Origin: a virus
Length of the DNA stretch: 64,000 bases
Strand: one strand, 5' to 3'
Virus record (IMG/VR): IMGVR_UViG_3300045988_142085
Span: 96,001-160,000 of that record
Below, piece by piece: positions 3,894 through 47,280 of this stretch. The position numbers were made by a program, and so were the translations under genes. How positions within the stretch are numbered: position 1 is the stretch's first letter; every line of letters starts with the position of its first letter. The notes below the pieces were generated by a model. That model was given only the letters and a program-made list of their open reading frames with translations, was not told the origin of the DNA and did no database searches.

Positions 3894-4166
3894 TTATTTA
3901 AATTTTATATAGTCTTTCTTTCTAATATCTTCCCAGAGATATTCATACATTTTCTCGACAGCATTTGTAGTATATTTCATTCTTTCTATTGATTCTTCTA
4001 TTTCTTTTGGAACAGGCATATTGAGATTATATTCGACGGCAATAGTCTTCTTGTCATAATAATATATTAAATGAGCGAATAGATAGTTAAATATATCGGA
4101 CTTAAATTTTAAATATAAACAAAAGCTTTTAATAAAATATGATTCTCTTTTCCATGTTCTATCCAT
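3894..4166 (-). CDS. hypothetical protein (90 aa)
   Basis: ORF track. Confidence 0.45.
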   Translation of the reverse strand: MDRTWKRESYFIKSFCLYLKFKSDIFNYLFAHLIYYYDKKTIAVEYNLNMPVPKEIEESIERMKYTTNAVEKMYEYLWEDIRKKDYIKFK

Positions 4167-4210: not shown

Positions 4211-4227
4211 CGCTCGCTATCGCTCGC
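4211..4227. repeat. CGCTCGCTatCGCTCGCC iteron-like motif (extra copy of the family clustered at 8.0-8.4 kb)
   Basis: GC-rich doubled 8-mer in an AT-rich intergenic gap; same motif at 8025, 8115, 8249, 8384. Confidence 0.5.
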
Positions 4228-4270
4228 CGCCCCTTTCATTATTTAACAATAATATTATTCTAAGACCATA

Positions 4271-5196: not shown

Positions 5197-6380
5197 TTTG
5201 TTTACTCCTTTATGATATAATAATATAATTAATTATGTTTGAATTTAAAATAATAAAATCGAGCCGCTATTACACATCTCTTTATTTAACTCTTAATATA
5301 TATTTAATTATAACTACCTATATAATAATAATATAATACTCTATACATTTATTATACTATGATTAATTTACTATTATACTAGTAATATTTATATAATTGT
5401 TTATGTTATATGTTATTATAATAATATATTAGCGTAACTGGTCGGCTTTAGCCGAACTGTTGCTGTCAATTATATTAAATAAGGTTTGAAGTATTGTAGC
5501 TAGTTTATTTTAAAAACAATACGAAAACAAATGAATTAGGTAAGTAGAGATATGTTTCAATATATTAATTAAAATATTAAAATTAACCAAAAACACTTGA
5601 AATAGAACGGTTGTAGAGTGTTTCTGCCCCTCTTTGTCTCAAAAAATAGAAAACACTCAAAAATATCAATAATAAGCAGGGTTTGAAGTATTATAGTAGA
5701 TTAAATGCTTAAAATATTAAAATGAGTAAAAAATATGCAATTAAGGTAGATGTGAGAGTGTTATATATATAGTCTAAAACTTAAAATAGCCTAATATTGC
5801 TTTAAAAACGGTGTGAGATAAGTGTTTCCTACCCTCCTCCCCCACCCAGCAAGCAATACTACACTTGCAGGATGTTGTCGTCGGGGCGCTCGTGAGGCGA
5901 CAGCGGGCTTTATTATTTTTTTTATTTATTATATATATAGTATATATAGCCTAAGTTATATAATAGTATAAGCTACGCAATAATTAAAGGCGGTGCCTCT
6001 AAGACTCTTGTTATTTAAAAGGCATTAATCTGTGTTATAGTATTATATAGACAGCCTTAATATTATATTATATATATGTTAAATAATAATATATCAGTCT
6101 ATATACGAGGCGCCAAGTCCTCTCTTAACACACGGGAATTGGCTCAATCAGGTGACGGTTATTTAAGAAATAATCTATACTTAATAATTATACAACAAAT
6201 GTATAATCCATTTAGGTTATCCTATTATATACTATAGATATAATAAATTAATACTAAGATTAAAAAAGGTTAGATAAAATCTACATTTTTAGCGACGATA
6301 TTTTTTGATAAAAAAATACCAAAAAATATCACGAATTTCTATTATACAAAAATAATGTATAAATAATTATTTTAATATTT

Positions 6381-6505
6381 TTAACCCGCTACACAACCAT
6401 AGATTGTAATATACCGGTGTAACAAGTTACACCGCTCCGCAATTTTTAATATAAAATAATATAACCAAGGCCCCCTGAAATAAATTCAGCAGGGTCTTTT
6501 CTTTA
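6381..6505 (+). ncRNA. candidate small-RNA unit 1: motif TTAACCCGC-N-TGTAATATA, perfect hairpin GGTGTAAC/GTTACACC, then intrinsic terminator
   Basis: conserved 9-mer plus -10-like TGTAATATA shared with units 2 and 3; downstream hairpin 6473-6494 followed by a T-run. Confidence 0.35.
6473..6505 (+). terminator. intrinsic terminator (CCCTGAA..TTCAGCAGGG plus TCTTTTCTTT)
   Basis: hairpin followed by T-rich tract on the plus strand. Confidence 0.45.
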
Positions 6506-6569
6506 TATTATTATATATATAATATAATAAACACTAACAATTAAAATAAAAAAATTATTTTTATTTTTT

Positions 6570-6682
6570 TTAACCCGCGGTGCTAACTTAACATGTAATA
6601 TACCGGTGAACGACAGTTCACCGCTTCCACTCACTTAAATATATAATAATCCTCAGAATAAAATCTGAGGATATTTTTTTTG
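6570..6682 (+). ncRNA. candidate small-RNA unit 2: same promoter-like motif, hairpin GGTGAAC/GTTCACC, terminator CCTCAGA-loop-TCTGAGG plus T8
   Basis: motif identity with unit 1; covarying hairpin; clean rho-independent terminator 6651-6682. Confidence 0.4.
6651..6682 (+). terminator. intrinsic terminator (7-bp GC-containing stem plus T8)
   Basis: perfect stem CCTCAGA/TCTGAGG, loop ATAAAA, then ATATTTTTTTT. Confidence 0.6.
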
Positions 6683-6689
6683 GAATTAA

Positions 6690-6786
6690 TTAACCCGCTT
6701 CGCTAATATACTACGTAATATACTAGTGGACGCAGTCCACTACTTCAGAACCTAAGCATCCTGACCTAACGGCCAGGATTTTTTCA
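6690..6786 (+). ncRNA. candidate small-RNA unit 3: same motif (CGTAATATA variant), hairpin AGTGGAC/GTCCACT, terminator ATCCTGacc..ggCCAGGAT plus T6
   Basis: motif identity; covarying hairpin; terminator 6758-6786. Confidence 0.35.
6758..6786 (+). terminator. intrinsic terminator
   Basis: stem ATCCTG.CC/GG.CAGGAT followed by TTTTTT. Confidence 0.5.
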
Positions 6787-7960
6787 TTATTAAGCATAAA
6801 CAAAGTTGGCCCATTTTAAAAATGCTCCAAACCCTTACTCACGTAATCTGCTGTGAAGATAAACAACTCGCAGAGGATCGTACACGAATAACCGTTTAAC
6901 GTATTCGGGCCTTAGCCCTCGATACTACTTTATATATAATATATATATAATTATTCTAATATTATTTAAAGATTTAAATAAGCGTCACTATTATTATCTA
7001 AATATAATAATTTATTTTAATATAATTAAAAAACCGTTCGCCTAAAATATTCGGTGTTCATTCTCTCTATCCATAACACCTAGTAAAAGAGGTAACAGTA
7101 TAACGCCGGAACCAGAGCAATAAAATTCCAGCTAACTGGTTAGAGCTTTCAAACTCTAACAACTTGGAATGATTAGTACTCGATAATAATTGTATCCTAA
7201 TAATTAATATTAATTATTATAAATTAATCTCGCACTAAGCAGAGCCTTCGTCACGAACTATAACACAGAAAATTGTAATTACGCTACGCTAATACAACCA
7301 GCCAACTTCGCTGCGCTATCTTTCTCTGGATCGGATCAAGACATTCTTTTATAATATATATAATTTAATAAAAGAATCAAAAGGGATTCGCCACCTAATA
7401 TAACCTTCGCCCCTAAATTAAATCCGGGGTCTCAGAACATATATTCCTTCGGAAATAGCCGGCGGCTCAAAATAATTGAATTATTTAAATCCAATTATAA
7501 TCACTGTTGCTCACCTAATTGAATAACTAGCAATAGTGTCCTATATAATATATATACTAATACTTAATTAATAATATACTTCATATATTATTATTAATAA
7601 CTAACATTACTTTTAAATAAAAAGTAATACAAAATACATATGGGGGGCGAAAAATATTCGAAATTTTATAACCTAAAGTTTCAGATTTTTCAGCCCGGAT
7701 TTTCGCTTTTATATATAGTACGACATAGTATACCGCTCACGGTCGTCCTCGCTAACGCTCGTTCCTTACCTACAGCTCAGTCGCAAGCTCCTTTCGCTTT
7801 CGGGATGCGTTTGCTATACGGCCCTCCGGGCCTCCATTATACTATACATATAGATAGCTTAAGGCAGGCGCTTTAATCGGTCGCTCCCGCTCCCTCTTCG
7901 CTTCTTTATCTAACCTATCTATATCCTTACGGATCGTAGCTAAAAGCTTAATACTAATAA

Positions 7961-8324
7961 CTTACTTCTCTTAATAAGAGAAGATAACAAGAGAACTTAA
8001 TATACTATATACATATATAATAAACGCTCGCTACCGCTCGCTTCTAATATAAATATAATATATATAATAATAAATACTTACTTTCTTAGGAAGAAAGATA
8101 ACAAAGAAGATATACGCTCGCTTCGCTCGCTCTTAATATAAATAATAAATACACACTTACTCTCTTAGAAAGAGAGTAACAGAGAACTCTAATAATAAAT
8201 AATAAACTGCTTACTTCTCTAAAGAGAAGATAACAAGAGACACATATACGGCTCGCTTATGCTCGCCTTGTTAAATAAATAAAATGAATATGCTTACTCT
8301 CTTAACAAGAGAGATAACAGAGAA
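7961..8324. repeat. array of 5 covarying hairpin repeats: CTTAC-[pyrimidine tract]-loop-[purine tract]-(G)ATAACA-[purine tract]
   Basis: copies at 7961-7994, 8077-8110, 8156-8186, 8210-8240, 8293-8324; flanks conserved, stems differ with compensatory changes (TTCTCTT/AAGAGAA, TTTCTT/AAGAAA, CTCTCTT/AAGAGAG ...), and the 3' purine tail covaries too. Confidence 0.7.
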
Positions 8325-8410
8325 TATTATAACGGCCGGCTCACGTGCGTTCGCACGGCCTACTATACAAAATAAGAGATCTACGCTCAGCTCGCATTCG
8401 CTCGCTTCGC
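8025..8410. repeat. CGCTCGCT-nn-CGCTCGC iteron-like motifs (4 copies) interleaved with the hairpin repeats
   Basis: copies at 8025-8043, 8115-8132, 8249-8267, 8384-8410; related CGCTC-rich tract at 7747-7765; GC-rich direct repeats in an AT-rich noncoding region. Confidence 0.55.
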
Positions 8411-8531
8411 TTATAGAGCGCTCGTGTGGCTTTATTAAGCAGTAACAACTTCACGCTATAAGTAATCATAGCCACCCAATTAAATATCATATACTGACGC
8501 ATATGATATTCAAAAAAAATAATTTTAGTAC

Positions 8532-8575
8532 ATACATATATATTGGATTAAAACCATACTCCAATATATATGTAT
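8532..8575. repeat. perfect 16-bp AT-rich inverted repeat (8532-8547 / 8560-8575) with a 12-nt spacer
   Basis: ATACATATATATTGGA ... TCCAATATATATGTAT, read directly. Confidence 0.7.
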
Positions 8576-8672
8576 ATATTAAATAAATTTTAAAAGAGCA
8601 AGCCGTCCTTTATATATACAGGACACCGCATCAAAAAAATATAGCTTTAGTCGGGAGCCATATTAATATTAT

Positions 8673-8745
8673 TTATTTAAATAAAAATAAGGTTTAGATA
8701 ACAGATGCGACCCACTCCCGTGTGCTTTTCCATTATCTAAACCTT
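8673..8745 (-). terminator. terminator of the rightward-encoded minus operon: 13-bp inverted repeat AAGGTTTAGATAA/TTATCTAAACCTT then a U-rich tract on the minus strand
   Basis: perfect 13-bp inverted repeat 8689-8701 / 8733-8745 just downstream of the stop of 8752..9234; the loop is long (31 nt), hence moderate confidence. Confidence 0.45.
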
Positions 8746-8751
8746 TAATAA

Positions 8752-9234
8752 CTAGCCTTCAGCTTGAGCTTCTTTAGCTTGGTTAGATACCATAACGATA
8801 TCATCGCTACCATCACCAGTAGAACCGAAAGATTTCTTAATAGAACGAATTTCATCGCTCTTAGTTAATTCGCCCCAGGATGCTTTTGCTTCGTCTACGA
8901 TGACACTAGTGCCACCAATTCCAAGCTCAGCAACCTTTTTAAGGCCACCAAAGAGACCTTTGGATACAACTTTAATACCGCCAATGCCAGCATCTTTAGT
9001 AATGCCAGCAACGATACCTAATTTCTTTCCGCCCCAGTTCACAATGCCACCAGTAGTAGCTTTGAATTTTGCCATTTTGTAGGCAGAAAGAATATCTTCT
9101 ACGACTGCATCGTCGCATTCTACTGTAAGAACTGTGCCATCTTGTGTGACACTTGCGTTGAATTCTTCAGTAGCTTTTTCATTGATATAATTAAGGATTT
9201 CTAAGTTTTCGTTTGTAATCTTAAATTGAGCCAT
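8752..9234 (-). CDS. Gly-rich hypothetical protein (160 aa)
   Basis: ORF track; strong ribosome-binding site; GC-richer codon usage than the flanks. Confidence 0.55.
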   Translation of the reverse strand: MAQFKITNENLEILNYINEKATEEFNASVTQDGTVLTVECDDAVVEDILSAYKMAKFKATTGGIVNWGGKKLGIVAGITKDAGIGGIKVVSKGLFGGLKKVAELGIGGTSVIVDEAKASWGELTKSDEIRSIKKSFGSTGDGSDDIVMVSNQAKEAQAEG

Positions 9235-41124: not shown

Positions 41125-41159
41125 TTATATTACAAAGAAAGCCTGTCTTATGACAGGCT
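41125..41159 (-). terminator. terminator hairpin AGCCTGTC-TTAT-GACAGGCT overlapping the dnaE stop
   Basis: 8-bp perfect stem with the stop codon in the loop; U-rich tract follows on the minus strand. Confidence 0.45.
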
Positions 41160-43100
41160 AACTTTCTTAACAATCATCTTAGAATCAGATTCTTTTTTGC
41201 CAGATAAATAGACTGTTTCGCCATACTTAATATAAGGCAAATTATTTAAATAAATAGAACTGAATACGATCAAATCAATTTCGACGCCGCCACCAACATC
41301 GCCTTTACAAAATGCCATAAGATTGCCGGACTTATCTTTTCGTTCATCGACTTTGGTGATTCTAACTTTAACGTTTTCTACTTCTGTTTTATCTTCCATA
41401 GAAAACCATTCTGGTGTATATGTTACCGGGCAATTTAATGTGTCCATTTCAAAGCTCATAATAAGTTCCTTTCCATAATTATCATTATTTAAACGTTCAT
41501 CTTTATCTTTTCTTAAATCATAAAACTGATTCATTAATTTTAAACGATTACTTTCGATATTAGAGAAAGCACCCGACTTAATTAAAGATGAACCAACACG
41601 TTTATTAAACGCTTTTTTACCAATTTTATTCATAGCATCTTCTAAAGAAGTGTAAGGTCGATGTTCAATTATGGCAGGTATGGAAGATAGACCCACGCCC
41701 TTAATGGACCCAAGACCAAATAAGATAGTGTTTCCATTAGGAGTAAAATCGAGATTTGATACATTAATGTCCGGAACTTCAACGTCGATCCCTTCCTTTC
41801 TAACCAATGGAATATAACGAACTAAATCTTCTAAAGATTGCATCGATAAATATGCAGCAAAGAATTCTACTGGATGATACAATTTAAGCCAAGTAGTAAG
41901 CATACTGGTAAATGAGTAGGCTACAGCATGAGATTTGTTAAATAAATAATTTGAATATCCTTGTATTGTTTCAAAATAATCTTCCATTTCTTTCTCAGTA
42001 TAACCATTAGCAAGAGCACCTTTAATTTCAGGACCATATTTACCTTTAGGGTCATACCAAGGAGCTTTATCGTCTTGTTCCCAACCTTCTGGACCTTCAC
42101 AATTTTTCTTGCCATAAATATGACAACGTTTAAGCATAGGCATTTTATCTGCTTTTTTCTTGGCCAGAATTTTTCTAGAAAGTGAATCTGCTTGGTTATC
42201 ATCAAAGCCAGAAACTTGTTTAGAGATCATCATAATCTGCTCTTGATACGGGATTACAGAATATGTATTACTTAAAATATTATCGATACCGCGTAAAGGA
42301 GCAGTTAATTCCTCTTTACCTTGTTTACGCTTAGCATATTGATGGTGCATATTTGCACTTAATGGGCCCGGTCTCAAAAGTGCCGTGGTTGCCGCAATAT
42401 CGTCGAAGCAAGTTGGCTTCATCTCTTTTAAATAATCTTTAAACATATCAGATTCTAATTGGAACACGCAATCTGATTTAGCTTGTGCCAATAATTTATA
42501 TAATTTTTTATCTTCGATATCGAAGCTATCATATAACCATTGAACATCTTTATTTAAATGTCTTAATGTTGTTTCTATTATGGATAATGTTTTAAGACCG
42601 AGGATGTCGAGTTTTGCTGTACCTAGTTCTTCACATTCAGTACCTGTAAATAACGTAATTGTTACGCCGTCAGCATCAGTACGTGTCGGAAAATAATCAT
42701 CGACACGACAAGGCATTGCTAGAATACCAGAAGCATGAACACCGAAGTTACGTTTAAGACCTTCGAATGCACGAGCCAATCTAAATAATTCTTTATTGTC
42801 GACTTCTAATTTCTGCCATTTAGTATATAAAGATTTTTCTGTTTCGTTGCCATCTTTTAATGCATCATAATGTTTAAACTTTGGTTGAGGAGGTACGACA
42901 TCTTTAAAGTCGTCAATAATTTTAGATAATGCATTCATTTTATCGAATGGAATTTTAAGTGCGCGACCAATATCTTTTAGGCCAGATTTAACGCCCATTT
43001 GAGAATATGTACCAATATGCGCTACGTTACTTTCGCCGTATAAATCTTTAATATGTTCAATAACTTTGTCTCGACCAAAGTAGCTAAAATCTGAATCTAT
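41148..43100 (-). CDS. dnaE: DNA polymerase III alpha (DnaE-like) exon 2; true 5' end at 43100, upstream of the ORF-track Met
   Basis: Aligns to the E. coli DnaE palm and fingers (FQLES, RPGP, NKSHA motifs). The in-frame stretch upstream of the ORF-track ATG reads IDSDFSYFGRDKVIEHIKDLYG, matching E. coli [23 protein letters not shown]. A stop codon lies just beyond 43103. Confidence 0.75.
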   Translation of the reverse strand: MDSDFSYFGRDKVIEHIKDLYGESNVAHIGTYSQMGVKSGLKDIGRALKIPFDKMNALSKIIDDFKDVVPPQPKFKHYDALKDGNETEKSLYTKWQKLEVDNKELFRLARAFEGLKRNFGVHASGILAMPCRVDDYFPTRTDADGVTITLFTGTECEELGTAKLDILGLKTLSIIETTLRHLNKDVQWLYDSFDIEDKKLYKLLAQAKSDCVFQLESDMFKDYLKEMKPTCFDDIAATTALLRPGPLSANMHHQYAKRKQGKEELTAPLRGIDNILSNTYSVIPYQEQIMMISKQVSGFDDNQADSLSRKILAKKKADKMPMLKRCHIYGKKNCEGPEGWEQDDKAPWYDPKGKYGPEIKGALANGYTEKEMEDYFETIQGYSNYLFNKSHAVAYSFTSMLTTWLKLYHPVEFFAAYLSMQSLEDLVRYIPLVRKEGIDVEVPDINVSNLDFTPNGNTILFGLGSIKGVGLSSIPAIIEHRPYTSLEDAMNKIGKKAFNKRVGSSLIKSGAFSNIESNRLKLMNQFYDLRKDKDERLNNDNYGKELIMSFEMDTLNCPVTYTPEWFSMEDKTEVENVKVRITKVDERKDKSGNLMAFCKGDVGGGVEIDLIVFSSIYLNNLPYIKYGETVYLSGKKESDSKMIVKKVSLS

Positions 43101-44294
43101 CTTTTACACCCTAGCTTTCGCTATATTTATTAAGGAATAGACCATATCTTCACCATATTTTTATTTTTAAAATAAAAACTTAGGTTGCTCCATTTCGGGC
43201 TTATCACCCTACGTCCCTTTGGACTGGCCGTTGAACGTTCCCCTATTCGAGGCTTCGCTGCTGATTTTCCAATCTTGTCTTTTTTTAGCATATCACACTT
43301 TTGCTTATTTCATCAATATGTTGTAGCAAGACAAGCTCTAAGGATGTTCCAGCAATTTAGAGCTCTTTAAACTTTAGATTTCTCTAAAGCACGACTATTG
43401 TTTAAATTGCATAAATCTAAATATCTTTGATATTTTCTATTCAAATATATCGTTGCATTTTTATATAATAGATCTAAAATTTTTTGTGTTTTTAAGTTTC
43501 CACCAAATTCTAAAGACATAACTTCTTGATAATCTTTTCTTTTATAATATTTATTAGCAGAAAAGCCAAGTTTTTCTTCTATATAATTATTAACAAAATC
43601 AAGAAATTTTTTAGTTGAAACTAATTTAAAAGCATAACTGTTACTTAATTCTGTGTTGGTGTGAGCAATAGAACCATTCCCATCAAAATATCCTCGTATA
43701 AAATCTGATACATAATTTTCTAATAAAGATATGTCTGGAGGAATTAAAATATTTGTTTTGTGTTCTACTAAGTTATATTTTAATAAATCATTAAACATAA
43801 TTTCAGAATAATATATTATTCTACTATAGCTATTTTTAGAATAAGAGTTTTTAGTTGCTTCATATGTTTTAATGGGATGATTACTCTCTAAACTTTTATT
43901 TAATTTTTCTAAATGAGTATAATCACAAGTAGACAATGTAAGACCTACTTTGTATGAATTATTATTTTTAGAAATATATCCATCAGCCATTAAAAAACCT
44001 AACCAATATGCTTTTTCTTCTGTGTCTATTTTATTGAAAAATTTTTCATTAAAATGATAGCGTGAATTAGCTTCTCTATGAGATCTAGGCGTTAAATTTT
44101 TCTTAATAAAGTATGAAACTTTTCCAGTACTAATACCTAATTCTTTTGCTATATATGGTGATCCATGTTTTTTATTATATAAATCTACAATTTTATTTTG
44201 AATTTCTTTTGATAATTTTGACATATATGTTACCTCATATTTATATTGATTTATAAATATTATAACATATATAATTATCTTATGCAATCATATA
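43101..44294 (-). mobile_element. group I intron (about 1194 nt) in dnaE carrying a LAGLIDADG homing endonuclease gene
   Basis: Exon 1 ends in U (GAU, Asp of LPD) and the intron ends in G, the classic group I boundaries. Joining the exons restores PD-IDSDF in frame. The 3' 266 nt is GC-richer and hairpin-rich (ribozyme-core-like). The nuclease has its own ribosome-binding site. Confidence 0.6.
43367..44224 (-). CDS. LAGLIDADG homing endonuclease (double-motif, about 286 aa) with N-terminal HTH
   Basis: motifs WLGFLMADGYIS and IRGYFDGNGSI; GAGGT ribosome-binding site before the Met at 44224; lies between the dnaE exons. Confidence 0.7.
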   Translation of the reverse strand: MSKLSKEIQNKIVDLYNKKHGSPYIAKELGISTGKVSYFIKKNLTPRSHREANSRYHFNEKFFNKIDTEEKAYWLGFLMADGYISKNNNSYKVGLTLSTCDYTHLEKLNKSLESNHPIKTYEATKNSYSKNSYSRIIYYSEIMFNDLLKYNLVEHKTNILIPPDISLLENYVSDFIRGYFDGNGSIAHTNTELSNSYAFKLVSTKKFLDFVNNYIEEKLGFSANKYYKRKDYQEVMSLEFGGNLKTQKILDLLYKNATIYLNRKYQRYLDLCNLNNSRALEKSKV

Positions 44295-45686
44295 ATCTGG
44301 CAAGCCTGTTCTGTCGATAGTCAAAAAACGACCGAACAGTAAATCATATTTAATAGGATCGATATTTTTAGTGATGCCAATACACCATAATACTAAACTA
44401 CCTGCAGCGCTCCCGCGTCCAGGACCAGTCATTACACCATTATTATCGGCCCAGTTAATATATTCACGAACGATAAGCATATAATCAGCGAAATCTTTAT
44501 AGTTAATAATGTTAAGTTCATACGCTAAACGTTGTTCATATCGTCTAATATCGTTAGCGATATAATCATATCTTTTTGCTAACTCATATAAACCTTTGTA
44601 AGCTAGTTCACGCAATTTACGTTTAGTATTTTTAACGCCAGGAAGTTTAGGCATTAATGGTACATCACTGCCTAATTTATATTCGCCGACTTTATTTGCG
44701 ATTTCTTGAGTATTATGCATTGCTTCTAAATATAAAGCATATTTTTCACGAGCAACACTTACTTCAGTTTCAGACGTATTAATTAAATATTTAAATCCGT
44801 CTTGCATTTCTTCTTCGTTTTTAAGCCAGAAGTTATGATCGTATTTCATACGGTTAGGATTATAAATATCGGTGCCAGTGCCGACACATACTAATACATC
44901 ATGATCTTTATTATCCTCTTTGAGGACATAATGTACATCGCTTGTCGCAACGAGTTTAATATTATGCTTCGTCGACATTGTTAAATAAAAATTATTTACT
45001 TTGACTTGGTCGTCGAATGCATTAGGTTGAACTTCGAGATAGAAGTCGTCACCGAAAATATCTTTATATTCTAAGATAAGTTCTTCGGCTTTTTCTAAAT
45101 CGTCTTTACGAACACGACTTGCTACCATATTCGCAACACATGCTGTCGTACAAATAACGCCTTCGCTATATTTACGAAGCATCGGCATATCGAACAAAAA
45201 GCGCCCGTTGTATGTACATACTTTAGCAGATTCACTTTGTAATTTAATTAAATTATTTAACCCTGTTTGATTTTTAGCTAATAAGATTAAATGATATTGT
45301 CTTGTGTCGTACATATGTTTTTCTGCACGAGCCTTAATATCTTTAATGCCTTTAACGCCTTTTTTGCCGGACGCTAAATCTTCAGCTTCTTTTTCTGTTA
45401 AGTCTCCGGCTTCTTTCGCCTTCAAAGCCGCATCGGCCCAGCGTTCTTCAACAGGTTTAGATAATGAAAGAGTGTCCCATGTTTGATATCCTTCATAACC
45501 TAAGATAGGCTTAACACCTTGTTTTTTACATTCTTGTAAAAATTCATAAATACCGCCCATATGATTATGGTCTGTGATGGCTAAACTTTCCATACCGAGT
45601 TCTTTAGCACGGCTAACTAACTTCGGTATATGACAATAGCCATCTAAAAAGCTATATGATGTATGTACATGTAAATGCGTAAACAT
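44295..45686 (-). CDS. dnaE: DNA polymerase III alpha (DnaE-like) exon 1: PHP domain and N-terminal palm up to GPGRGSAAGSLV...GLPD
   Basis: MFTHLHVHTSYSFLDG PHP motif; GPGRGSAAGSLVLWCIGIT..DP..LLFGRFL matches the DnaE signature; the ORF stops 4 codons into the intron (YMIA*). Confidence 0.75.
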
Positions 45687-45748
45687 TTTATTATTCCTCC
45701 TTATAAAAAATATAATTGTTTATCAACAAATATATAATATTATGTATA

Positions 45749-46987
45749 CTATTCTAACCAATAAATTTTATTAAATTTCCAAATTAATTTACATTTTTGT
45801 GCGTTTACTTTTTTACAGTGTTTAGTTTTTGATTGAAAATTCAAAACTAATTGTTCTGGGTATAAAGCTGTAACATAGCCTGTGTGAATCTCTCCATTTT
45901 TATACGTATAAGAAACTAAATCTCTATGCTTAATCCCTAGTACATTATTAGTTTTTGCTTTTGATTTTCTCCTCATTGGTTTAATAGTCCATTCTTTTAT
46001 ATTGCAAGAATCTGGAATGTCATTTGTAATACATATAGCATCATTACTATGAGATTTTTCTATATTCCATTCAATTCTTTTATTCGCAGTTGCGCCGCCA
46101 TTAGTCAAATGCAATAATCCTAATTCAGATATTTTATTTCGTAAATAATTTTTACCTTGCATAACATGCATTGCATAATCGAATCGTTTAGGCTTAGAAT
46201 TAATTATTTTAAAATATTTATCTTCAAAATCTTTTTCTTTACCTTTTGTTTTGTCATGACATTTGAAACAAAGAGTAATTAAATTTCCAATAGTATCTGC
46301 TCCATGATATTTTCTTGCTCTTATGTGATGTACTTCTAATTTGCAATTAGATTTTCCACATTCTTGACATTTATAGTTATCACGAATAATAGTTGCTTTT
46401 CTAAGATTTTCATCTAAACGATTAGATTTTTGATATTGCCATTTATAAGGTTTATAATCGTCTGTCATTGCACGAATATCAATACAAACATCTTCAAGAT
46501 AATATTCTTTAATATTTATCCATTTATTTAGTTGATATAATACTCTTAAAATAGCATCTTTCTTTTGTTTAATAGTTGGTGTTAATCTACCGACTTTTTT
46601 GGAAGATGAGCGATTATTAAACCTCATTGGTCTATGTCTTTTATGGTAACGATGATATTGTCTATATCTACGTCTAGTATCCATCAAATGTTTCACATCT
46701 TGACGTTGTTCAATAATCCCTTTAAATACTACTTTATTTTTAGTAGAACATTTCTGAACAATAGCTATACCAACATGTATAGAACCATCGTCTATACCAC
46801 AAATTATATAACTTTTATCATTTTCATTAAATTCAACTTTTTTATTTAGTTGAATTACCATTGGGTATTTAGATTTTAATTTTGCTCTGCCTTTTCTAAT
46901 TAGATACCAGCCTTTATTCACTTTTGTTGGCGCTAATGGTTTATTATCTTTATCAATTACAAAGCAATATTCAATTTTATTTTCCAT
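45749..46987 (-). CDS. iscB: IscB RNA-guided nuclease (PLMP, RuvC-I, Arg-rich bridge helix, RuvC-II, HNH, RuvC-III, TID), 412 aa from Met [12 protein letters not shown]
   Basis: Motifs seen: KPLAP with [12 protein letters not shown] (PLMP domain), [16 protein letters not shown] (RuvC-I) and [16 protein letters not shown] (bridge helix). Also YLEDV (RuvC-II), CQECG..HHI..N..LCFKCH (HNH) and HSNDAI (RuvC-III). GGAAGG ribosome-binding site 9 nt upstream of this Met. Confidence 0.75.
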
Positions 46988-47280
46988 TTCTGGAAACCTT
47001 CCTTTCGGAGTATTTTTCGTCTTGCCAATGTCGTGGATGGTGCATGTGTTTCTCTGTTGTCTATACAGGACGTTAGTATAGTTTCTTGATTGGCACTCAC
47101 AGAGCTTCAGACTGACGAGCACATCTAAAGGTGTGTCTTTAACCTTTTCCATAACGTAGTTCATATCTGCAGCATATCTTTCGATAGCAGCAATCACTAA
47201 GGCTAGAAACCTATTATCAAGCAAATACAAATAAGAAATATAATATATATTCGCCCACTTTTTCGTATTTTTATTTATAA
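46988..47280 (-). ncRNA. putative omega-RNA scaffold (plus guide) of the IscB element; coincides with the ORF-track N-terminal extension
   Basis: about 230 nt of markedly GC-richer, stem-forming sequence immediately upstream of and abutting the iscB start, the canonical omega-RNA position; exact ends unknown. Confidence 0.4.

Follow-up and report, generated by a model that had tools for sequence, protein, structure and literature searches.

Among the structured repeats described so far, those closest to the locus reported here are the PIT/BoxC/TMECO elements, an intrastrand-triplex kind in which a pyrimidine tract (Y), a purine tract (R) and a second purine tract lie on one strand and are joined by short loops (Hoyne/Maher 2000; Holder et al. 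2015, PMC4666352). Their second purine tract conforms to the triplex code, the complement carries the pyrimidine-motif class, and they are extragenic and multi-copy. In the classification of intrastrand triplexes, class II has the order pyrimidine, purine, reverse-Hoogsteen strand, and class IV has the order Hoogsteen strand, pyrimidine, purine on the other strand (Holder et al. 2015, PMC4666352). Our analysis concerned a stretch of 64,000 nucleotides (nt) of viral DNA, hereafter the window (positions 96,001 to 160,000 of IMG/VR record IMGVR_UViG_3300045988_142085), and an array of five short repeats in it, units A to E, which share these features and are best filed as an A/T-rich, hairpin-anchored variant of the known intrastrand-triplex kind. 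TMECO, in contrast, is G/C-rich with 9-nt tracts (CCCTCNCCC..GGGNGAGGG..GGGNGAGGG), is dispersed in enterobacterial and cyanobacterial chromosomes and has been linked to genome instability, while neither a function nor covariation has been shown for it. The phage units have A/T-rich tracts of 6-7 nt, an extra covarying lower stem of 4 bp and a single-nucleotide linker, and they form a syntenic array of diverged paralogues with phylogenetic three-way covariation.

The strict pattern CTTAC-Y6-N(1-6)-R7-TAAC-R6 matches exactly five times in the 64 kb, always on the + strand (7961-7994, 8077-8108, 8156-8186, 8210-8240 and 8293-8324), and dinucleotide shuffles of the window gave no match. Each unit (Table 1) is a hairpin of 10-11 bp with an optional bulge, built from the 4-bp lower stem TTAC/G(A)TAA and an upper stem of 6-7 bp with one all-pyrimidine and one all-purine arm. 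A further purine tract begins one nucleotide, the linker C, past the foot of the hairpin. This third tract is the mirror (reverse) of the purine arm of the stem, as in AAGAAA/AAAGAA, AAGAGA/AGAGAA and AGAGAA/AAGAGA, and only in unit A (AAGAGAA) is the tract self-mirroring. The loops are 2-3 nt and 5-6 nt long. Taken alone the hairpins are weak, with predicted energies of -4.3 to -10.8 kcal/mol (unit C, -10.8) from folding software that considers secondary structure only. A possible sixth member, at 6297-6330, has a unit-like layout with a different linker and is too low in complexity for a test of the mirror rule; relatives keep it as TTTTTT-NNN-AAAAAA-A[TC]AC[CT]-AAAAAATA.

Relatives were collected by scanning IMG/VR with the pattern CTTACT-Y5-N(2-6)-R5-AGATAACA and the JGI metagenomes with a looser one, and further contigs were obtained via the homologues of a neighbouring protein. 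Since the patterns left the third tract free, except for its first base (A) in the looser pattern, the mirror test is unbiased. The same ordered array, with slots A to E, was found at 49 loci, inside a syntenic noncoding block that aligns end to end; these loci hold 217 units, 134 of them distinct. The tract types, given as pyrimidine arm/purine arm/third tract, are TTCTCTT/AAGAGAA/AAGAGAA, TTTCTT/AAGAAA/AAAGAA, TCTCTT/AAGAGA/AGAGAA, TTCTCT/AGAGAA/AAGAGA and TTTCTC/GAGAAA/AAAGAG. A perfect mirror of the purine arm stands directly after the linker C in 124 of the 134 distinct units (98.4% of positions match), while a direct copy at the same offset occurs in none of the 110 units with an asymmetric tract, which disposes of a direct repeat of the purine arm. 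When tails were shuffled among units, at most 56 of 134 were perfect mirrors; this figure and the empty shuffles of the window rule out a chance origin. In a base-anchored alignment of 43 distinct units, 99.3% of the hairpin cells are paired and seven of the ten pairs show compensatory changes, a result reached by 0 of 500 shuffles. When the pyrimidine arm is read parallel to the third tract in the same alignment, 100% and 98.8% of cells are complementary; the two covary at five of six positions, with a covariation score that again no shuffle (0/500) attained.

Individual slots illustrate how the three tracts move together. At locus L027, slot B has changed from TTTCTT/AAGAAA/AAAGAA to TTTCTC/GAGAAA/AAAGAG, a coordinated change at all three mirror-related positions. 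Slot D has become TTTCTT/AAGAAA/AAAGAA in L003, L011, L014, L025 and others with its neighbours unchanged, slot A appears either with TTCTCTT or as TTCTCT/AGAGAA/AAGAGA, and slot E is TTCTCTT/AAGAGAA/AAGAGAA in some relatives. The lower stem covaries as well, CTTAC going with GATAAC, CTTGC with GACAAC, and CCTAC or TCTAC with GATAGC; this signal is carried by slot E, and both single-step intermediates, CTTGC/GATAAC and CTTAC/GACAAC, occur. Several simpler accounts of the third tract were rejected. A low-complexity (CT)n artefact is contradicted by the non-periodic tracts, which obey the rule, and by register 0 being the only one in agreement with all six positions; slides of +/-2 score partly high because two tract types have CT periodicity. 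The third tract cannot be an alternative hairpin partner, since a mirror cannot form Watson-Crick pairs with the pyrimidine tract and the L027 triple leaves no shifted register. Pairing between the third tract of one unit and the pyrimidine tract of the next would fit units C, D and E of the window, but slot D or E switches type while its neighbours do not.

The initial annotation had noticed the five units and their tracts changing in concert, and had taken this as a sign of selection on a folded structure, listing an intramolecular triplex of mirror repeats among the options. The units are there as described, the array recurs in the relatives with conserved synteny in which such repeats were to be sought, and selection on a folded structure is strongly borne out by the comparative covariation, the three-way pattern also lending support to the triplex. 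The concerted change of the tracts holds, with the correction that the second purine tract is a mirror and not a second copy, so the alternative of two competing hairpins falls away. GATAACA, treated there as a mere link between tracts, contributes G(A)TAA to the covarying lower stem by pairing with TTAC, and the distances between unit starts are 116, 79, 54 and 83 nt, the first having been given as 132.

The rule that governs the third tract places A at A:T pairs and G at G:C pairs, antiparallel to the purine arm. On the + strand this is the canonical purine-motif set (T.A.A, C.G.G), and on the complement it reads as the pyrimidine-motif triples U.A-U and C+.G-C, parallel to the purine arm. 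The five units and the 134 distinct units of the relatives have the three tracts on one strand, with Watson-Crick pairing of the pyrimidine and purine tracts and a third tract of mirror polarity. Because the three tracts share a strand and the lower stem covaries, the selected object would be a folded single strand and not duplex H-DNA. We therefore regard the units, with a probability of roughly 0.7 judged from sequence, as paralogous modules that selection maintains for an intrastrand fold, in which a hairpin binds a third strand through 6-7 base triples. A-minor interactions prefer G:C pairs, and a tail in the minor groove was rejected because the observed rule is the major-groove code, the opposite of that preference. 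Recognition by a protein dimer does not account for mirrors either, since dimers recognise inverted or direct repeats. Tract length speaks on the other side: intrastrand-triplex motifs are defined with loops of 1-6 nt and tracts from 6 nt upwards, in the ITxF study at least 8 nt were needed to exceed chance, and tracts of 6-7 nt were often fortuitous in A/T-rich genomes (Holder et al. 2015, PMC4666352), the range into which the present units fall. The case for a triplex consequently stands on covariation, not on mere occurrence or length.

The looser pattern also matched many unrelated contigs in the JGI metagenomes and GTDB, from Saprospiraceae, other Bacteroidota, Ignavibacteria, Clostridia and Patescibacteria. 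As this pattern forces ACTTAC and GTAACA, conservation of the flanks is an ascertainment effect, while stem complementarity and the tail were not forced. In 51 distinct non-phage instances the stem has at least 6 bp; among these, 15 of 21 internal sites have G at the mirror position against a background of 3.5%, compared with only 1/21 and 3/21 in the shifted registers. Examples of such triples are TTTTTCTT/AAGAAAAA/AAAAAGAA, TTTCTTTT/AAAAGAAA/AAAGAAAA and TTTTCT/AGAAAA/AAAAGA, and the layout ACTTAC-Yn-loop-Rn-GTAAC-mirror(Rn) was seen on L158, L150, L187, L211, L223, L184, L205, L230, L194 and others. In many versions from Bacteroidota the 6-nt loop pairs with the bases that follow the tail, and the pairing covaries; versions from Ignavibacteria and Patescibacteria also pair the loop with these bases. 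Pairs seen in the look-alikes are CTTGAT/ATCAAG, CTTGAA/TTCAAG, ATGC/GCAT and ATTC/GAAT. Next in the versions of these three groups comes a long hairpin, conserved and about 150 nt in length (..AAACUC-[stem-loop]-UCAAACA..GUCGG). In the clostridial versions the tail is followed by a G+C hairpin, UUGGGG..CCCCAA. The element is multi-copy in metagenome-assembled genomes of Saprospiraceae. The bacterial look-alikes matched no Rfam family at gathering score and had no conserved neighbouring gene; they behave like extragenic repeats, as BoxC/TMECO does.

Which strand folds, and whether as RNA or DNA, has to be judged from indirect features. We tentatively favour gene-sense (minus) RNA, giving it somewhat less than an even chance. 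Its order would be 5'-Y1-G-[UUA(U)C-Y2-loop-R-GUAA]-G-3', with the 5' pyrimidine tail Y1 running parallel to the purine arm R within the deep groove, which is the class IV order of Hoogsteen strand, pyrimidine and purine. The 4-bp lower stem and the single G would then provide the spacing needed for the strand to cross the groove. On an A-form cylinder estimate the 5' end and the other strand, taken 5-6 levels higher, are separated by about 10 Å across the deep groove (12.7 Å at 4 levels), and since the first purine of the tract is at level 5, a 4-bp stem with one linker nucleotide would deliver the 5' tail to it. Loop 1 of H-type pseudoknots crosses its stem by the same deep-groove principle. 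In addition, no tract type has adjacent C residues and the tracts are A/U-rich, as pyrimidine-motif triplexes prefer; the flanking genes and the OTKONC RNA described below are all on the minus strand, and the GC-rich motif of the array, which has one orientation, recurs at 4211 between minus-strand genes. Pyrimidine-type intrastrand triplexes form in RNA, whereas purine-type ones were reported not to (Holder et al. 2015, PMC4666352).

The same strand order is found in triple helices of the MALAT1 and telomerase type, provided that the units are RNA, as we infer. Major-groove triple helices are known from the 3' ends of MALAT1 and MEN-beta, from viral ENE with poly(A), from telomerase and from the SAM-II and preQ1-II pseudoknots. 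They use U.A-U and occasional C+.G-C triples in the order Hoogsteen pyrimidine, Watson-Crick pyrimidine, purine, with the strand 5' of the helix crossing the deep groove, and those of MALAT1 and ENE protect the RNA end. These triple helices differ from the units in being eukaryotic, eukaryote-viral or riboswitch elements with additional helices or a poly(A) partner. We know of no bare hairpin with a 5' tail among such RNA triple helices, and of none from a phage.

Some observations weigh against the gene-sense RNA, and part of them suit the opposite strand, on which the CTTAC-first sequence, as single-stranded DNA or RNA, would fold into Y-loop-R1 with the 3' tract R2 antiparallel in a class II purine motif (A.A-T, G.G-C), the arrangement that has been suggested for BoxC/TMECO. 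On that strand GATAAC would be a loop in the triplex state, and the lower stem would belong to a second state with an extended hairpin. This reading agrees equally well with the covariation data, C+.G-C triples on the minus strand require protonated cytosine, and the groove geometry given above is a cylinder estimate. Small RNAs of + sense with terminators are present in the block, and an invariant TATAAT-like block, ATATAATATATATAA, precedes unit B in + sense at a constant distance of 9-10 nt. Furthermore, the pairing between loop and post-tail bases in the bacterial versions should, on topological grounds, be feasible only if the CTTAC-first strand folds and its third strand runs towards the loop, which would point to the + strand if the two families are homologous; the ACTTAC and GTAACA that the two share were imposed by the search pattern and are no proof of homology. 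In bacterial genomes class II is also found more often than any other class (Holder et al. 2015, PMC4666352). Wobble intermediates are split: CTTGC/GATAAC and one upper-stem T.G, both of G.T type, favour the + strand, while CTTAC/GACAAC and one C.A favour the minus strand, and the evidence from these intermediates, like that from the terminator scans, is indecisive on strand. Against a + strand fold stands, first, helix geometry, which suggests that with the lower stem closed a 3' purine tail, having to climb four pairs along its own strand, could not get to the major groove over a single C. Even in DNA, third strands made of A-rich purine tracts are weak, and no source of single-stranded DNA is known for a double-stranded DNA phage of about 230 kb. 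Together with the failure of purine-motif triplexes to form in RNA that was reported (PMC4666352), this makes the + strand fold unlikely in our judgement.

As regards function, the triple helix of the gene-sense RNA would reinforce otherwise weak A/U-rich hairpins, and the units could be compact caps, resistant to nuclease or helicase, that protect or terminate the ends of short transcripts. Such a role in end protection or termination is put forward as a conjecture. In four of the five units the gene-sense module consists of a GC element, T(T)ATA(T), 0-30 nt, the pyrimidine tail, G, the hairpin and GUAAGU with A/U-rich sequence, which might be read as tandem short transcription units or as one repetitive RNA. 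The (GAGCG)n motif, which four of the five units adjoin, could serve as a promoter or as a protein- or RNA-binding element, and a GC-rich block followed by TATA recalls, by analogy, the promoters of single-subunit polymerases. The terminator scan is a point on the other side, as only unit C passed it (minus strand). The unit tails read GUAAGU followed by mixed A/U, without U-tracts adjacent to the stems, whereas in an intrinsic terminator a G+C-containing hairpin runs directly into a U-run. A terminator-like site lies downstream in gene sense of 27 of 124 phage units and of none in the other sense.

A second explanation does without a triplex and takes the units for ordinary hairpin signals, either weak terminators, for which unit C and the gene-sense sites just mentioned would speak, or promoters of the N4 virion RNA polymerase type, with the + strand as template and firing leftward to small early-like genes; the third tract would then track the stem only through gene conversion that copies whole units between slots. 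The N4 virion RNA polymerase uses promoters that form small hairpins, several of them in noncoding DNA before the early genes, each having a 5-7 bp stem and a 3-nt loop. The units resemble them in a compatible hairpin shape and in stems that vary between copies and stay complementary; they are small, have purine-rich loops of 2-3 nt and lie upstream, in gene sense, of a run of small ORFs (open reading frames). The slot swaps, moreover, resemble conversion. N4 promoters, however, lack a third tract and a homopurine/homopyrimidine rule, and neither a promoter nor a terminator requires so strict a stem. Conversion cannot first create five distinct mirror triples, and it leaves unexplained both the triple change at L027 and the same rule in unrelated bacteria. 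No N4-type polymerase was found among the large ORFs of the window, which covers 64 kb of a genome of about 230 kb and leaves some 170 kb outside. With the U-tracts set apart from the stems as well, we consider ordinary hairpin signals improbable.

The initial annotation had headlined the block as a candidate origin or packaging site with an unwinding element. At the DNA level, CGCTCGCT would bind an initiator or small terminase, the A/T spacers would melt and a cruciform or H-DNA would extrude. The block is indeed A/T-rich, repeat-rich and conserved in all relatives, direct repeats of the GC motif lie 9-10 bp apart on the same helix face, and the mirror repeat R1-GATAAC-R2 has the sequence that H-DNA needs. 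Short direct repeats in an A/T-rich noncoding region are also what iteron origins and packaging (pac) sites show, but the repeats here are 8-nt motifs, partly in hairpin loops with a covarying stem and interleaved with structured units, and not iterons of 17-22 bp. No DnaA-box match with up to one mismatch occurs in 5200-8750, the cumulative GC skew falls monotonically through the block without a turn and with the gene strand unchanged, no adjacent initiator or terminase gene was recognisable, and the contigs of relatives end away from the array. H-DNA needs the mirror repeat only, while folding of a single strand is indicated by the extra same-strand pyrimidine tract and by the covariation of the lower stem. 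With 6-7 bp the arms fall far below the length needed for extrusion of H-DNA or a cruciform in vivo, and the block includes bona fide RNA genes. The headline has thus found no support, a DNA-level role being simply unsupported, and we regard it as very improbable. Finally, a tRNA or known RNA family at the array (the covariance models of Rfam 15 gave no match over 7700-8450 at E<=1), a CRISPR array or type III antitoxin repeats (units not identical, spacing irregular, no adjacent cas or toxin genes) and a coding remnant or pseudogene (non-triplet indels in relatives, no genes called there) were dismissed.

The GC-rich motif CGCTCGCT occurs six times against 1.06 expected, at 4211, 8025, 8035, 8115, 8124 and 8399, always on the + strand, five copies being in the array and one outside. 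Of the sites listed by the initial annotation, 8025, 8115 and 4211 hold, while 8249 and 8384 are variants (CGGCTCGCTTATGCTCGCC and CGCTCAGCTCGCATTCGCTCGCTTCGCT, respectively). The GC elements share the core TCGCT-N(1-2)-YGCTC, and in relatives this core is often exposed as a 12-nt loop, TCGCT-NN-CGCTC, on a short covarying stem of GGCC/GGCC, GGC/GCC or GCC/GGC; that of 8249-8267 alternates between GGC..GCC and GCC..GGC. The outlying motif at 4211-4228 is followed by TTATTTATATAA in gene sense, with the ATG of the minus-strand ORF 3894-4166 about 45 nt downstream of it; it may represent a promoter or regulatory site that the array also has. The perfect 16-bp A/T inverted repeat that had been reported at 8532-8575 is present (8532-8547/8560-8575) and forms the core of a 35-nt imperfect palindrome (8516-8591), which relatives retain only in part.

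Table 1. Positions of the array units, GC-rich elements and RNA genes in the window; for units A to E the strand is that of the pattern match.
Feature	Position	Strand	Sequence or layout	Remarks
Unit A	7961..7995	+	CTTAC-TTCTCTT-AAT-AAGAGAA-GATAAC-AAGAGAA	Hairpin and third tract; tract its own mirror
Unit B	8077..8108	+	CTTAC-TTTCTT-AGG-AAGAAA-GATAAC-AAAGAA	
Unit C	8156..8186	+	CTTAC-TCTCTT-AGA-AAGAGA-GTAAC-AGAGAA	No bulge; no GC element after it
Unit D	8210..8240	+	CTTAC-TTCTCT-AA-AGAGAA-GATAAC-AAGAGA	
Unit E	8293..8324	+	CTTAC-TCTCTT-AAC-AAGAGA-GATAAC-AGAGAA	
Possible sixth, low-complexity member	6297..6330		T6-GAT-A7-TACC-A6TA	Hairpin and A-tract tail
GC element after unit A	8025..8042	+	CGCTCGCT-AC-CGCTCGCT	Position conserved among relatives, sequence variable
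GC element after unit B	8115..8131	+	CGCTCGCT-T-CGCTCGCT	6 nt past third tract
GC element after unit D	8249..8267	+	CGGC-TCGCTTATGCTC-GCC	Short stem closes 12-nt motif loop
GC hairpin after unit E	8333..8360	+	CGGCCGGCTCACGTGCGTTCGCACGGCC	Relatives have GGCC-TCGCTACCGCTC-GGCC there
GC-rich run	8384..8411	+	CGCTCAGCTCGCATTCGCTCGCTTCGCT	Right edge of array
Outlying GC motif	4211..4228	+	CGCTCGCT-AT-CGCTCGC	Between two minus-strand ORFs; orientation as in array
OTKONC RNA (Rfam RF03053)	6792-6962	minus		Full-length match, 170 bits vs gathering score 141; inside block
Three diverged copies	6381-6790	+	TTAACCCGC..GTAATATACCGGTG-hairpin	Unit of about 120-190 nt; each followed by hairpin and T-run

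The window looks like a segment of a phage genome, is A/T-rich (27-40% GC) and has all its long ORFs on the minus strand, also on both sides of the array. Among its genes a split DnaE-type polymerase, a RecJ-like nuclease and a baseplate protein could be recognised, and the INPHARED phage collection contained nothing similar to the window and no close relatives. The protein encoded at 8752-9234 (minus), which adjoins the array, has 161 homologues, many of them on contigs of 222-242 kb and one labelled 'Caudoviricetes sp.', and the window is thus part of an abundant uncultivated jumbo-phage clade. The noncoding block around the array measures about 3.5 kb (about 5200-8750) and is flanked by ORFs without family matches; gene callers leave a gap of about 3.2-3.4 kb at the corresponding place in relatives, in agreement with the noncoding status originally assigned to it.

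The block contains many short, conserved, G+C-richer islands among TATA-rich spacers and no tRNAs, and it looks like an island of small RNA genes, namely OTKONC and small repeated units with intrinsic terminators. The three copies at 6381-6790 probably represent paralogous small RNAs of + sense; they have no Rfam match, and their intrinsic terminators are at 6470, 6649-6680 and 6750-6790 on the + strand. A terminator at about 6750-6790 that looks bidirectional adjoins the 3' end of OTKONC. The motif TTATATATATAGTA recurs at 5761, 5929, 6511 and 7707 (+), in four copies of 93-100% identity ahead of G+C-richer islands, and related TATAC(A/T)ATATA(G/T)A blocks (e.g. 7839-7860) are invariant in relatives; both are candidate phage-specific promoter boxes. 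In the left part of the block ATAAGNNGGTTTGAAGTATTNTAG occurs twice, at 5472-5499 and 5669-5696, about 197 nt apart and each time preceding a similar sequence (..GTGTTTC(T/C)..CCC(T)C..), and forms a further small repeated noncoding unit. At 8690-8745, directly after the stop codon of the 160-aa (amino acid) gene, a 13-bp stem (AAGGTTTAGATAA..TTATCTAAACCTT) with a conserved 31-nt loop (CAGATGCGACCCACTCCCGTGTGC..) is followed by a T-run in gene sense, as in a terminator with an unusually large, sequence-conserved loop. Away from the array, the DnaE-type polymerase region (41148-47230, minus) is split into a PHP/N-terminal part (44280-45686) and a finger/HHH part (41148-42998) with a 306-aa ORF (43367-44287) between them. 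Immediately upstream lies a 493-aa RRXRR + HNH protein (45749-47230) of IscB-like or homing-endonuclease architecture, and the window gave no match to HEARO/omega-RNA.

The biological role of prokaryotic intrastrand triplexes has been a standing question since PIT/BoxC was described, and earlier evidence for such triplexes consisted of occurrence statistics and the in vitro folding of one G/C-rich motif. The present analysis adds that five paralogues, dozens of relatives and unrelated bacterial elements keep three tracts in triplex-code step. Covariation routinely serves to establish RNA helices, and for a triplex it has almost never been at hand. The units are natural, about 35 nt long and come with built-in compensatory variants, and they suggest a simple search rule: a hairpin, a 4-bp spacer stem, one linker and a mirror tail. 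That a hairpin with a mirror tail is a natural and widespread minimal triple helix, a compact stabilising or blocking module in phages and several bacterial phyla (Bacteroidota, Clostridia, Patescibacteria and others) that would have its 5' pyrimidine tail clamped in the deep groove of the hairpin in RNA, or its purine counterpart in single-stranded DNA, we consider rather doubtful; if it is true, the phage array would be the first three-way covariation proof of an intrastrand triplex as a selected structure. If the units act as RNA, end-protecting triple helices would extend from eukaryotic nuclear RNAs to phages.

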